Positions 35,870 to 41,954 of a stretch of 64,000 bases of DNA are shown one piece after another. How positions within the stretch are numbered: position 1 is the first letter of the stretch; each line of letters opens with the position of its first letter. Made by a program: the position numbers and the translations under genes. The notes under the pieces were generated by a model that did not search any database, was not told the DNA's origin, and saw only the letters and a list, made by a program, of their open reading frames with translations. Origin of the DNA: Longimicrobiales bacterium (GTDB taxonomy: Bacteria > Gemmatimonadota > Gemmatimonadetes > Longimicrobiales > Gaopeijiaceae); the NCBI GenBank assembly GCA_965249725.1, contig OZ252251.1, positions 352,001 to 416,000 of the forward strand, written 5' to 3'.

Positions 35870-38698
35870 CTACCCCGTCTTGAGCGACTCGCGGATCACC
35901 CGAGCTTGTTCGACCACGTGGCCGATGTTCTTCCCTTCCGCGGGGCTGGCGCGTTCGGGACGCGCTACGTGGCTCAGCTTGAGTTCCCGAGGCACCACGG
36001 CTCGAAGGCGCGGGCCCACGTATGAAAGGGCTCCCATGTTCCTCGGCTCTTCCTGAACCCAGACAACCTCGCGCACGGCAGGGTAGCCGGCGAGCAGTTC
36101 CTCGATCTCGGATGCCGGGAACGGATAGAGTTCCTCGAGTCGCACGACCGCGACCCCGGATTCGTCTTGTCGCAGTTCACTGCCTGCCAGGTCGTAGTAC
36201 AGCTTTCCGGAGCAGAGCAGCAGGCGGGTGACCGAGTCGGCTTCGGTCACCACGGGATCGTCGAGTACGGGCTTGAAGCCCCCTTCCACGAGATCGGCGA
36301 CGGCTGATGTGGCTCGAGGGTGCCGGAGAAGGCTCTTCGGCGTCATGACCACGAGGGGGCGCTCCGGGCGGACATGTGCCTGCCTTCGGAGCAGGTGGTA
36401 GTACTGCGCGGGCGTGGTGGGTGACACCACCCGCATGTTGTCCTCGGCGCACAGTTGGAGGAAGCGTTCCAGCCGGGCGCTCGAGTGTTCGGGCCCCTGG
36501 CCCTCGTAGCCGTGAGGGAGGAGCATCGCGAGCGTGGCGACCTGCCCCCACTTCTCCCAACCCGAAGACACGAACTGGTCGATGGAGACCTGGGCCGCGT
36601 TGGCGAAATCGCCGAACTGGGCTTCCCACAGGACCAGGTCCTTCTCCGAGGCCACGCTGAAGCCGTACTCGAAGCCCAGGACGGCCATCTCGGAAAGAGG
36701 GGAGTTGTGCACCGTGAAGCGCGCTTCTCCGTACTTGGCGAGCGGCGTGAACTGCTGGCCCGTCTCGGCGTCGTGGAGCACCAAGTGTCGATGGCTGAAC
36801 GTCCCGCGCTGCGAGTCCTGCCCGGTCAGCCGCACCGGAACGCCCTCCCAGAGGAGTGAGCCGAACGCGAGAGCTTCCGCGTGACCCCAATCCAGAGAGA
36901 AGGCGGGACCGAACCCGTCGTCACGTCTCGAGAGTTGCCGCTCCAGCTTGGGATGGACCGTGAAGTCCTCCGGCGTGGCTACTGCTGCTGCGTTCACCTC
37001 CAAGAGAACGTCGAGCGGAATGGAGGGAATGGAGCCGCGCGGCGGCCCCAGGTTCGAGTCCTCCATAGCGTCGGCGGCCGAGTGCTCTTCGCTCTGCACC
37101 TCGTCCTGAGCGTCGCGAAGGTAGCCGGAGACTCGGGCGGTGATCACATCCACGTCGTCAGCGCTCAGCACGCCCGCACCGACGAGGGCGTCCGCGTAGA
37201 CCGCCCGAACCGTCGGATGCTCCTTGATCCTCTTGGACTCGAGCGGTTGGGTATAGCCCGCTTCGTCACCCTCGTTGTGGCCGTAGCGACGGTAGCCCAC
37301 CAGGTCGATGACCACGTCATCGTGGTACTCGGCCCGATATGCCATAGCGAGCCGAACGGCGGTCATGCACGCCTCGGCGTCATCGGCGTTCACGTGGATG
37401 ATCGGGAAGCTGAAGCCCTTGGCCAGATCGCTGGCGTAGCGCGTGGAGCGATCGTCGATCGGAAGCGTCGTGAAGCCGATCTGGTTGTTGGCGATGAGGT
37501 GTACCGTCCCGCCCGTCGTGTAGCCGGGCAGCCTTCCGAGGTTGAGCGTCTCGGCCACGACGCCCTCACCCGCGAACGCGGCGTCACCGTGGATCAGAAT
37601 AGGCACGACGGCCGCCGTATTTCGCTCGGTTCCCTGGTCATCGCCTTCATGCTGAAGCGCCCGCGCCATTCCTTGTACGACAGGGTTCACGAACTCGAGG
37701 TGACTCGGATTCGGCGCCAGCGTGATGTGGATGACCGATCCGTCCGGCAGGCTGCGTTCACCCTCGGCCCCGTGGTGGTACTTCACGTCACCGGTACCCT
37801 CCACGGAGAAGGCACCCTTCGCTTCAATGCCCTCGAACTCGCGGATGATCTCCTCGTATCCGACTCCCACGAAGTGAGCAAGAACGTTCAAGCGGCCCCG
37901 ATGAGCCATGCCCAACACGACCTGCTGGGCCCCGGCTCGGGCGGCCTCTTCGAGGGCGAGGTCCATCATGGGGACCATCATGTCGGTCCCTTCGATGGAA
38001 AAGCGCTTCTGGCCCAGGTAGGCCTTGTGAACGAACTGCTCAAGCCCCTCGACCTCAGCCAGTCGCTGTAGGAGCCTGACCTGGTCGCCGGCCGCCATGG
38101 GCTGTGCGTGCACCCCGGACTCCACCTGGTCCCAGAGCCAACGTACCGCCGAGGGGTCCTCGAGGTGCTCGAACTCATAGCCGATGGTCCCGCAGTAGGC
38201 CTTCCCTAGCCTCTCCAGCGCCGACGCCAGGGACTCCTCTCCCACTCCCTCCATGACCAGAGAGGCGGGCAACTCCTCGAGCTCCTCCATGCTGGTGCCG
38301 AAGAACGACGGATCCAGCTGAGGATGTCCGGGCGGTGCCGATCCCAGCGGATCGATCTGGGAGAGGTGGTGGCCATGGTCGCGGTAGGCCTGCACGAAGG
38401 ATGTCGCGCGCGCCACCACCGGAAGGAGCCGGCGCATGGCATCGGCTTCACCCTGCACGGCGTGCAGTTCCTCGGTCCGGAACTCGGTGACCTTCGCTGC
38501 AGGAGCGTCGACTGAGCCGCCCCCGTTCGCCGCCAAGCTCTCGGGTACCATGAGGCCTGCTTCACGAGCCGCCGCCGGCCCCAACGAGAAGAATCGTCGC
38601 CACTCTTCGGGGACCCCTGATGGGTTCCGGGCGAACTCTTCATAGAGCGCCTGAGCGTACGCGGCGTTCTGGCTGTCGAAGGGCTTCTCTTCCATCAC
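35870..38698 (-). CDS. sucA: 2-oxoglutarate dehydrogenase E1
   Basis: YLGQKRFSIEG, GMAHRGRLN, GDVKYH, NPSHLE, HGDAAFAGEG, WEAQFGDF, GPEHSSARLERFLQ. Confidence 0.96.
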   Translation of the reverse strand: MMEEKPFDSQNAAYAQALYEEFARNPSGVPEEWRRFFSLGPAAAREAGLMVPESLAANGGGSVDAPAAKVTEFRTEELHAVQGEADAMRRLLPVVARATSFVQAYRDHGHHLSQIDPLGSAPPGHPQLDPSFFGTSMEELEELPASLVMEGVGEESLASALERLGKAYCGTIGYEFEHLEDPSAVRWLWDQVESGVHAQPMAAGDQVRLLQRLAEVEGLEQFVHKAYLGQKRFSIEGTDMMVPMMDLALEEAARAGAQQVVLGMAHRGRLNVLAHFVGVGYEEIIREFEGIEAKGAFSVEGTGDVKYHHGAEGERSLPDGSVIHITLAPNPSHLEFVNPVVQGMARALQHEGDDQGTERNTAAVVPILIHGDAAFAGEGVVAETLNLGRLPGYTTGGTVHLIANNQIGFTTLPIDDRSTRYASDLAKGFSFPIIHVNADDAEACMTAVRLAMAYRAEYHDDVVIDLVGYRRYGHNEGDEAGYTQPLESKRIKEHPTVRAVYADALVGAGVLSADDVDVITARVSGYLRDAQDEVQSEEHSAADAMEDSNLGPPRGSIPSIPLDVLLEVNAAAVATPEDFTVHPKLERQLSRRDDGFGPAFSLDWGHAEALAFGSLLWEGVPVRLTGQDSQRGTFSHRHLVLHDAETGQQFTPLAKYGEARFTVHNSPLSEMAVLGFEYGFSVASEKDLVLWEAQFGDFANAAQVSIDQFVSSGWEKWGQVATLAMLLPHGYEGQGPEHSSARLERFLQLCAEDNMRVVSPTTPAQYYHLLRRQAHVRPERPLVVMTPKSLLRHPRATSAVADLVEGGFKPVLDDPVVTEADSVTRLLLCSGKLYYDLAGSELRQDESGVAVVRLEELYPFPASEIEELLAGYPAVREVVWVQEEPRNMGALSYVGPRLRAVVPRELKLSHVARPERASPAEGKNIGHVVEQARVIRESLKTG

Positions 38699-39591: not shown

Positions 39592-39782
39592 ATCCCGGAG
39601 TGGGCCTCTGTGAGAAGTGTGCCTTCGTTCGGGTGGTCGAGAACAATCGAGGGTCTATCTTCCATCTCTGCGAGCGATCAAGCGAGGACTCGAGCTATCG
39701 AAAGTATCCGCAGCTGCCCGTGCTGACCTGTCCGGGCTTCGAGGTTGCGAGAACAGAACCAGACGGGGAGGTGGCTGAATGA
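39588..39782 (+). CDS. Small 4-Cys protein (64 aa), putative metal-binding
   Basis: MNPGVGLCEKCAF...FHLCERS...KYPQLPVLTCPGF; GTGA overlap upstream and ATGA overlap downstream. Confidence 0.75.
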   Translation: MNPGVGLCEKCAFVRVVENNRGSIFHLCERSSEDSSYRKYPQLPVLTCPGFEVARTEPDGEVAE

Positions 39783-40243
39783 GCGATCCGTTCTACATCG
39801 CGCGGGCCGACGTGGGAAGGCTGTCGGGCATCCATCGGCGTGCTCTCCTGGAGGATGGCACCCAGGTCGACTTCGGCGTTCATGGTCCGGTGAAGTCCCA
39901 CTACGGGCTGGACTCGGAGCCGAACCTGCCTCTACCCGTAGACTACATCGTGGCCGCCGCCGCTGGCTGACTACTCGGGACTCTAATAGGCGCACTGGAG
40001 GTGCGCGGGGTCAGGCTACCGAGCGACCACATCCGTTCGAGCGCCGAGGGGATCAACGAGATGCGGAATAGGATGCCACTCCTCACTGAGATCCACGTTC
40101 AGTACACCATCCAGATCCCGGAAGGCGACAGGGAGACCGTGGACAAGGCGTTGGCAAGGCACGTGGACAAGTGTCCCACGGCCCAGAGCCTGAAGGACTC
40201 GGTCGAGATCAGCTGGACGGCCGAGATCGAGGAGAGCGCATAA
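39779..40243 (+). CDS. OsmC/Ohr-family protein, probable selenoprotein (UGA at 39968-39970 read as Sec64), 154 aa
   Basis: Two in-frame ORFs join across TGA: PVDYIVAAAAG-U-LLGTLIGALEVRG...HVDKCPTAQSLK. The TGA is at the first catalytic Cys of the OsmC fold. Confidence 0.85.
39974..40023 (+). promoter_or_regulatory. Candidate bacterial SECIS element
   Basis: Upper stem GCGCAC (39990-95)/GTGCGC (40001-06) with loop TGGAG; lower stems GACTCT/GGGGTC and CTCGG/CCGAG; apical loop begins 25 nt after the UGA. Confidence 0.7.
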
Positions 40244-40334: not shown

Positions 40335-41954
40335 ATGCCGGAAATTCTGGCCTACATCACGTTGGTTGTCACGGCAGGGGTGCTCGCCCTGCTTGTGCCT
40401 TTTGCGCTGCACCGGACCTACCTGCTTTGGCTCTCCCGACGGAAGCGATCTGCCATTCGGGATCCCTGGCCCGAGTCCGAGCTCCCGCGAGTCACGATCC
40501 AGTTGCCGGTCTACAACGAGCTTCATGTCATTCGACGTCTCGTGGATGCAGCGTGCGCTCAGGATTATCCCCGTCATCTTTTCGATGTGCAGATCCTGGA
40601 CGACTCGACCGACGAAACGGCAGACGTCGCGGGGACTGTGGCCGACGAGTGGCGGGCCCGGGGGGTTGGGGTGGACCATGTGCGCCGCGCCACTCGGGGC
40701 GGGTACAAGGCCGGCGCCTTGGCTCGTGGGACGCACCGATCACAGGCCGACTTCCTGCTCGTCCTGGATGCCGACTTCGTTGCGCCCCCTGATCTGATCC
40801 GGAGCCTGCTACCCCCGTTTCGCGACCACGCGGTCGGCATGGTGCAGGCCCGCTGGGACCATTTGAACGCGGACGAGAGCTGGCTTACTAGGGGTCAGAG
40901 TCTATTCCTCGACGGGCACTTCTTCTTCGAGCAGGGCGGCCGGTACAAGAGCAGACGTTTCTTCAACTTCAACGGCACGGCGGGCATGTGGCGGCGTACC
41001 TGCATTCTCGACTCGGGGGGCTGGCTGGCCGATACGCTGACCGAAGATCTCGATCTCAGCTATCGCGCACAGATGAAGGGGTGGGACTTCGTCTTTCTGG
41101 AGGATGTCGGTGTGCCTGCGGAAATCCCGTCGACGGTGGGGGCGCTCGAGGTCCAGCAGAGGCGCTGGGCTCAGGGAGGGATCCAGACCGCGAAAAAGGT
41201 CCTACCGGAGCTGCTACGAGGACCGTGGCCCCTGGGCGTGAAGGTGGAGGCGACGGTGCACCTGTGTGGCCACCTCGCTCATCCACTGACGCTCATGCTG
41301 GGTTTGCTGCTTCTGCCCTCGCAGATCGCTCGGCGCACACTCGGCGTCGAACACTATTTGCTCCCGGATCTATTGGTCTTCACGGCGGCCACGCTGCCGT
41401 TCCTCGTGTTCTACGCCCAGGCAGCCCACCGGAGGGGTCGAGATCGAGGCTGGAGCCTCCGCGCCGTCCCCCAGGCATTGGCGCTCGGCATCGGATTGAC
41501 CGTGGCGGTGACGGGGTCCGTGATCCGAGGGGTCGTTCACCGGGGTGACGATGCTTTCGTCCGAACCCCGAAGAAGGGAGAAGCCACCCTCACGTCGTAT
41601 CGGACGCCCGTGGCCATGCGTGACCTCGTCCTGAAGTTGGCCGTTGGTGCGGTGATGGTCGGATACCTGTTGGGCGCCCTCGTATCAGGCTTCTACGGGT
41701 CCCTACCGTTCATCGTGCTCTTCGGGGCAGGCTACCTGGGTCTGGGGCTGCGTGGACTGGGCGACCTAGGCCTCGAGCGTCCGTCCTGGGAGCTTGAACG
41801 CGTCATAGGCGAGCAACCCGAACACCGGCACCCAGAGCAACACGCGGGCCCACACGGGCTGAGGCCAGACTCCCTGGGTGTGATACGTCTCGAGGCCCCA
41901 GTAGCCGAGGAATGCCAGCCCGCTCAGGAGGATCCAGCCTCGGCTCCGGCGTAG
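40335..41954 (+). CDS. GT2 processive glycosyltransferase (cellulose synthase-like / CslA-type)
   Basis: QLPVYNE, LDDSTD, GYKAGAL, DADF, FNGTAG, TEDLDLS, QQRRW, FVRTPK. Confidence 0.92.
   Translation: MPEILAYITLVVTAGVLALLVPFALHRTYLLWLSRRKRSAIRDPWPESELPRVTIQLPVYNELHVIRRLVDAACAQDYPRHLFDVQILDDSTDETADVAGTVADEWRARGVGVDHVRRATRGGYKAGALARGTHRSQADFLLVLDADFVAPPDLIRSLLPPFRDHAVGMVQARWDHLNADESWLTRGQSLFLDGHFFFEQGGRYKSRRFFNFNGTAGMWRRTCILDSGGWLADTLTEDLDLSYRAQMKGWDFVFLEDVGVPAEIPSTVGALEVQQRRWAQGGIQTAKKVLPELLRGPWPLGVKVEATVHLCGHLAHPLTLMLGLLLLPSQIARRTLGVEHYLLPDLLVFTAATLPFLVFYAQAAHRRGRDRGWSLRAVPQALALGIGLTVAVTGSVIRGVVHRGDDAFVRTPKKGEATLTSYRTPVAMRDLVLKLAVGAVMVGYLLGALVSGFYGSLPFIVLFGAGYLGLGLRGLGDLGLERPSWELERVIGEQPEHRHPEQHAGPHGLRPDSLGVIRLEAPVAEECQPAQEDPASAPA

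Follow-up and report, generated by a model that had tools for sequence, protein, structure and literature searches.

The 64,000-nt stretch of DNA analysed here (the window) carries two open reading frames, 39779-39970 and 40001-40243, which lie in the same frame and are separated only by the TGA that closes the first and by the 30 nt (10 sense codons) that follow it. Such an arrangement raises the question of whether this TGA ends a short gene, marks a lesion or an error in a longer one, or is read as selenocysteine (Sec) within a single intact gene. A preliminary description of the locus had adopted the last of these readings and proposed a selenoprotein of the OsmC/Ohr family with the UGA at the position of the first cysteine. 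Protein family, cysteine column, decoding machinery, TGA conservation, a downstream hairpin and the available assemblies all favour this proposal. We estimate at about 92% the probability that the locus is one genuine, intact gene for an OsmC-fold protein of presumed thiol/selenol peroxidase type, whose UGA-64 is decoded as Sec.

One reading frame with a single internal TGA

The two frames relate to each other exactly as had been described, the window sequence agreeing in every detail. Joined through the TGA, which is the only one in frame, they encode a product of 154 residues terminated by a TAA (40241-40243). The peptides quoted in the preliminary description, ...LPLPVDYIVAAAAG-U-LLGTLIGALEVRGV...HVDKCPTAQSLK..., match the translation exactly, as do the length and the end of the protein. 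The features of the locus are collected in Table 1.

Table 1. Features of the locus in window coordinates
Feature	Position	Strand	Remarks
CDS of OsmC-superfamily selenoprotein (proposed), complete	39779..40243	+	154 codons including UGA-64; Pfam OsmC match, AlphaFold2 model, dN/dS
GGAGG, Shine-Dalgarno-like	39767..39771	+	7 nt upstream of ATG 39779; putative function, read from the sequence
UGA codon 64, probable selenocysteine codon	39968..39970	+	Column of the first (presumably peroxidatic) Cys of OsmC/Ohr
SECIS-like hairpin within the CDS	39990..40006	+	Stem 39990-39996/40000-40006; apical loop GGA 39997-39999
TGT, Cys132, KCPTA motif	40172..40174	+	Column of the second (resolving) Cys of OsmC/Ohr
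Gene for 4-Cys mini-protein, ~60 aa	39600..39782	+	Upstream neighbour; its TGA stop overlaps the selenoprotein ATG (ATGA)

Both sides of the TGA are under purifying selection and evolve as coding sequence. Measured against four relatives, dN/dS ranged from 0.05 to 0.25 in the 63 codons upstream of the TGA and from 0.10 to 0.28 in the 88 codons downstream; the downstream value for one locus (L031) was dropped, as an indel made the ungapped comparison invalid. The same TGA is found in genomes of the same genus at 88% identity. Furthermore, contigs assembled from the runs of four studies span the TGA, without any difference being listed. These being assembled contigs and not raw reads, they show the TGA in independent assemblies and do not speak to rare variants; one of the four contig sets may itself be the source of the host assembly. 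A sequencing error at this codon, which the preliminary description had named as an outcome that would undo its proposal, is thus not what the independent assemblies show. Nothing specific suggests that the locus is a pseudogene or that codon 64 was wrongly sequenced or assembled, although a frameshift in a paralog elsewhere in the host genome (see below) shows this assembly not to be free of errors or decay. Set against that are the recurrence of the TGA within the genus, the agreement of the contigs and the low dN/dS on either side, and we consider the chance of a defective or misread codon to be close to negligible.

The read-through product belongs to the OsmC superfamily

Residues 51-146 of the read-through protein match the Pfam OsmC family (PF02566) with a score of 52.6 bits (gathering score, 27.5; E value, 6.5e-14). 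Scores obtained with curated NCBIfam models stayed below their cut-offs: 21.4 bits versus 85.8 for OsmC (TIGR03562), 19.2 versus 166 for SACOL1771 (TIGR03563) and 22.6 versus 95 for OsmC_like_Se (NF041052). The Ohr model TIGR03561 gave no match to the window protein at E<=1.

An AlphaFold2 model built from 21 sequences had a mean pLDDT of 92.2 and a pTM of 0.83. Its comparison with the PDB by Foldseek returned 66 matches at E<=0.001, headed by 2onf_A (TM 0.79/0.86). Next came 1ml8, Ohr 1usp, TM0919, OhrB 6eb4 and Escherichia coli OsmC (1nye/1qwi), and the matches listed were all OsmC/Ohr, OsmC-like or unnamed structural-genomics entries.

The preliminary description had stated that OsmC/Ohr proteins carry their first Cys in a PxELLxAALAGC-type motif and a second in a later CP motif, and U64 and C132 do sit at these columns. 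When the family profile was aligned to Thermus thermophilus OsmC (1ukk), the Cys of the "aGC" motif fell on column 64 and that of the "CP" motif on C132. In the AlphaFold2 model, residue 64 falls within a long helix (53-75), and C132 is found where helix 118-131 meets helix 133-138. C132 is invariant in the homolog alignment. So are R9, R20, R76, E90, R118 and E119. It is by superfamily, fold and the pair of redox columns that the protein is provisionally assigned to the peroxidases. The first Cys of OsmC/Ohr proteins is the one that we take to be peroxidatic; the titles of PDB entries for Ohr C60 mutants bound to dihydrolipoamide are consistent with this view.

TGA is the prevailing codon at the column of the first cysteine

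If the TGA stood for a redox residue, homologs should have Cys opposite it and relatives should retain it, as the preliminary description had pointed out. Both patterns were found. All 19 full-length (~153-residue) database homologs that span column 64 have Cys at that position, the 20th (P0027) being gapped there. A search of 41 related genomes yielded 27 matches at E<=1e-17, every one with exactly one TGA; in 26 of them, that is, in all those for which a locus was given, the TGA occupies the same column. The pattern extends to a phylum sample of 401 genomes, searched with a Cys form as query. The gene was identified in 111 of these genomes, and one TGA was present in 150 of the 150 matches listed, there being 25 further matches outside that list.

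Codon counts at this column are similarly one-sided. The 44 species-representative loci comprise 41 with TGA, 2 with TGC and one not spanning the column. Metagenome loci (n = 80) divide into 77 with TGA and 3 with TGC, despite the use of a Cys-only alignment as query. Over all fetched loci, TGA occurs in 151 distinct sequences and TGC in 5; neither TAA nor TAG is found in the codon-64 column of any of them, which argues against a plain stop. That all 26 loci examined from relatives, and 151 distinct sequences overall, have the same single TGA at this column of the alignment indicates that its presence at codon 64 is not due to chance.

The tallies for the 41 relatives, for selA and for the mini-protein (the latter two presented below) include the unpublished genomes G025, G096, G192 and G214, with a single count each, and none of the conclusions hinges on them.

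A conserved hairpin lies within the coding sequence downstream of the UGA

Decoding of UGA as Sec in bacteria involves SelB bound to Sec-tRNA(Sec) and recruited by a hairpin. A 7-bp hairpin with a GGA loop begins 19 nt after the UGA of this gene (+22 to +38). Over 86 distinct sequences, 98.2% of the cells in the aligned stem are paired, values that none of 500 shuffles attained, and this conservation is in part protein-driven because the hairpin overlaps the conserved peptide GALEVR in GC-rich genomes. When the register was slid, merely 17-71% of cells were paired. Compensatory double changes occur at three pairs (28 cells); the pair counts are A-U 56, G-C 25 and G-U 3; G-C 76 and C-G 2; and C-G 84 and G-U 1. 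RNAalifold, unprompted, predicts the identical hairpin.

The main elements of the structure are nearly universal among the 151 distinct Sec loci. All six core pairs are kept in 148 of them; the first G of the loop is present in 149 and the second in every one. Codon choice within the stem follows the pairing. The rare Ala codon GCA is found 101 times opposite GUG, and GCG 31 times opposite GCG, with zero A-C mismatches. This matching of GCA or GCG to the partner codon is indicative of selection at synonymous sites. The hairpin is weaker in the Cys forms, within the limits of a small sample (n = 5): two of the five DNAs keep the six pairs, none is fully Watson-Crick, the first loop G occurs in one, and GCA in none.

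Folding of single sequences was less telling. A 63-nt segment of the window gave a z score of -1.5, a modest excess of stability, with 14 of 200 shuffles equally stable, and in a 121-nt context no excess over shuffles was seen (z, 0.11). Given these weak folding energies, support for the hairpin is comparative and not energetic. The Rfam scan of the window found no family at gathering score, so that no generic model caught a SECIS element, and a tRNA scan of the window found none. The hairpin fits the description of a bacterial SECIS element given in the relevant passage of a published study, namely, a stem-loop just 3' of the UGA having a small apical loop with a G (PMC1088965). The preliminary description had regarded the lack of a conserved hairpin, along with TGC/TGT in all close orthologs, as evidence against Sec; what was found is a hairpin both conserved and covarying.

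In a separate observation, two metagenome runs contained short contigs (38-66 nt) of high depth, with 2-5 differences, which fall exactly over the UGA-hairpin segment (window 39959-40013). Such a pile-up would be expected if the samples contained many related organisms sharing a conserved SECIS region.

The host has a complete Sec machinery, and the gene is confined to selA-positive genomes

The proposal also called for selA, selB, selC and selD in the same organism. The host genome (4.16 Mb in 3 contigs, 95.8% complete) contains all four components, each scoring above its curated cut-off: selA with 560 bits, selB with 325 bits (352 with neighbours), selD with 375 bits and tRNA-Sec (selC) with 68 bits. 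The latter is reported by ARAGORN as tRNA-SeC with the anticodon tca (UCA). The selD gene (locus L013; G000:C1:279375-280298, minus strand) has one in-frame TGA of its own, and the selenophosphate synthetase of the host is probably a selenoprotein as well, a known phenomenon.

Within the phylum sample, selA was detected at E<=1e-60 in 321 of 401 genomes. The gene is present solely in selA-positive genomes (111 of 111 gene-bearing genomes) and in none of the 80 that are selA-negative, a figure whose statistical weight is overstated because kin are not independent and most genomes (321/401) have selA anyway. Co-occurrence was also checked manually within each family; in family f1, for example, 13 genomes do not carry the gene, and these include all 9 that are selA-negative.

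Altogether, six independent lines of evidence identify the UGA as a Sec codon: the machinery, the Cys homologs, the conserved TGA, the hairpin, the co-occurrence with selA, and the selection and assembly data. From these we infer that Sec is inserted at UGA-64 of this gene.

Two Sec clades, systematically cut short in annotation

The relatives form two Sec paralog clades, about 35% identical to each other, which have the TGA column and the hairpin in common. Clade A, to which the window protein belongs, reads ...G-U-[LM]-L-G-T-L...K-C-P-T-A; clade B reads G-G-U-L-T-G-T...C-P-V-Y-R-T. Judging from record titles and source names, the relatives come from Gemmatimonadota (Gemmatimonadaceae, Gemmatimonadales, Longimicrobiales), Candidatus Eisenbacteria, Acidobacteriota and others.

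The host genome also has a clade-B copy (locus L054; G000:C3:2678660-2679019, minus strand) that likewise shows the TGA column and the hairpin. Compared with its ortholog in the same genus (L050), this copy has a one-base insertion in a C-run that shifts the frame about 35 codons into the gene, either a homopolymer assembly error or the mark of a decaying copy. In another genome of the same genus, a clade-B gene (L051; G001:C2:29639-30091) has, besides the TGA, a TAA that cuts it off after about 94 residues; this gene is possibly a pseudogene.

As anticipated in the preliminary description, standard annotation fragments these genes. C-terminal pieces of 84-102 residues make up 100 of the 120 protein-database relatives listed. 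Of 11 such fragments that were read, 8 start at the Met right after the Sec column and the other 3 at a GTG ten codons downstream, as in the window. These starts indicate that annotation cuts the gene systematically.

The same fragments could be taken at face value. The TGA would then be a true stop, and two polypeptides, of 63 and ~80-90 amino acids, would assemble into a split OsmC domain. What gene callers report is in line with such an arrangement, as is the fact that the codon following the TGA is ATG in many relatives and serves as the start of most fragments read. However, a Met at this place is ancestral, the Cys forms reading G-C-M. Moreover, the window gene and those of its genus have CTA after the TGA, and the next in-frame start is 10 codons on, inside helix 53-75, which a second polypeptide would have to begin within. 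The exclusive use of TGA among the 151 distinct loci, the restriction to selA-positive genomes, and the covariation of the hairpin together with its conserved loop G all weigh on the same side. We therefore hold a split domain to be very improbable and retain the reading of one continuous selenoprotein.

Genes surrounding the locus

The mini-protein encoded immediately upstream (Table 1) has four invariant Cys residues in the pattern GLCxxC...RGSxFxLC...YPxLPVxxCxG[FY]E and belongs to no Pfam or NCBIfam family. It may bind metal. We considered that it might be an obligate redox partner of the selenoprotein and rejected the idea: it adjoins the Sec-OsmC gene in just 26 of 90 distinct loci, often lying far away, and is found as a single copy in 157 of the 401 phylum genomes, including selA-negative ones that have no OsmC gene of this kind. 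The mini-protein is thus a lineage-specific neighbour that the system does not require.

Directly upstream of the mini-protein gene is a gene of the Cu-oxidase_4 family (PF02578; 38818-39591, plus strand), and a family-2 glycosyltransferase gene (40335-41954) lies downstream of the selenoprotein gene. The window further contains sucA, for the E1 component of 2-oxoglutarate dehydrogenase (35870-38698, minus strand). We do not take the latter to point to a lipoyl reductant, as it is on the opposite strand and two genes away.

Proposed decoding and catalysis

We propose that SelB charged with Sec-tRNA(Sec) recognises the coding-region hairpin 19 nt 3' of the UGA and, competing with release factor 2, would supply the ribosome with Sec. 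Catalysis is proposed by analogy with OsmC/Ohr: the U64 selenolate, placed on the long central helix at the position of the peroxidatic Cys, would attack a hydroperoxide, and Cys132 would resolve the resulting selenenic acid to give a selenenylsulfide. A dithiol donor might then re-reduce the selenenylsulfide; in Ohr, this donor is dihydrolipoamide on lipoylated proteins. Peroxidase chemistry, substrate and reductant are all suggested by this analogy.

A genuine selenoprotein of this fold could also serve some purpose other than hydroperoxide reduction, that is, a different task in redox chemistry or chalcogen transfer, for instance thiol-disulfide exchange or the carriage of sulfur or selenium. 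Such a role would suit poorly characterised members of the YhfA/COG1765 type, and the best structural matches of the window protein do include uncharacterised structural-genomics entries (2onf, 1ml8). It would also be in keeping with scores below the cut-offs for OsmC, SACOL1771 and OsmC_like_Se and with the lack of an Ohr match, and the OsmC-like selenoprotein family already in print is filed, in the passages that treat it, under COG1765 as a "predicted redox protein". On the other hand, U64 and C132 preserve both positions of the mechanism at the OsmC/Ohr columns, and characterised Ohr/OsmC peroxidases are among the top fold matches with a probability of 1.00. On balance, we regard a non-peroxidase function as unlikely, though deserving of serious consideration, and prefer a selenol peroxidase.

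Relation to known OsmC-type proteins

That OsmC-like selenoproteins had been reported before, as the preliminary description had it, is correct. In the passages that deal with them, they were predicted in 2005 from Sargasso Sea data by Zhang, Fomenko and Gladyshev (3 Sec versus 10 Cys forms; COG1765; motif UxxT; PMC1088965), found again in the GOS survey of 2008 (5 Sec versus 161 Cys; PMC2398784) and listed in reviews of 2022 (PMC9312934) and 2026 (PMC13188914). Gemmatimonadota are not mentioned in these passages. Likewise, a literature search on selenoproteins in Gemmatimonadota showed nothing on this gene among the titles and beginnings of abstracts that were listed.

As far as those passages describe it, the marine UxxT family has in common with the present proteins the OsmC/PF02566 (COG1765-type) fold, Sec in place of a conserved redox Cys, the existence of Cys homologs, and a stem-loop 3' of the UGA whose small apical loop contains a G. 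The motif differs: the printed one is UxxT, whereas of the proteins described here those of clade A read U-L/M-L-G-T, where Thr stands at +4, and those of clade B read U-L-T-G-T. The share of Sec differs as well, being a small minority in the counts quoted from print (3 versus 10; 5 versus 161) and a large majority here (41 versus 2; 77 versus 3).

The curated model NF041052, "OsmC-related (seleno)protein", covers the same superfamily and foresees Sec. Two clade-B paralogs tested against it scored 15 and 20 bits, the cut-off being 95, and no protein exceeded this cut-off in 301 sampled phylum genomes or in the host genome. These scores, together with that of the window protein, place the branch outside the curated family and mean that NF041052 does not rescue it in annotation. 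The best match to this model in the host, at 53 bits, is an OsmC-like gene free of in-frame stops (locus L127; G000:C3:808960-809364, minus strand), presumably encoding a Cys-type protein.

With the Cys peroxidases of the Ohr/OsmC type (1nye/1qwi, 1ukk, 1usp/1n2f/6eb4), the window protein shares the fold (Foldseek probability 1.00, TM 0.67-0.79) and the columns of the two redox residues, and PDB entries titled as Ohr Cys60 mutants with dihydrolipoamide offer a model for the reduction step. It differs from them in having Sec for the first Cys and in its sequence, identity being just 12-22%, with a score below the TIGR03562 cut-off and no match to TIGR03561.

Implications

The kind of selenoprotein found here is already known, and the picture of selenoprotein kinds and of Sec decoding is unchanged. 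This branch lies outside the curated family, has a different motif and is overwhelmingly of the Sec form. We tentatively put forward, at somewhat less than even odds, the broader idea that it constitutes a separate, undescribed branch of OsmC proteins, distinct from the marine UxxT family, in which Sec is the default. Such a branch would comprise two Sec clades, and at least about 95% of its loci in Gemmatimonadota, Eisenbacteria, Acidobacteriota and further soil lineages would have TGA; Cys forms would be rare, curated models would miss it, and a SECIS element in the coding region would lock the peptide G-A-L-E-V/A-R. If this were so, the branch would rank among the most Sec-biased families of bacterial enzymes and serve as a widespread, so far unannotated marker by which soil bacteria dependent on selenium could be recognised.

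The main value of these results lies in the correction of annotation and in the recognition of a natural, nearly Sec-only OsmC branch. Well over 100 orthologs and paralogs are kept in public protein sets as C-terminal fragments, or are missed, and a dedicated Sec-aware model would repair many annotations in Gemmatimonadota and Eisenbacteria. An abundant soil phylum appears to invest selenium in an antioxidant enzyme of the OsmC type, if function is assigned by superfamily, and almost never uses a Cys version. With this version nearly absent, the branch offers a convenient natural setting in which to ask what advantage Sec confers over Cys in the OsmC fold.
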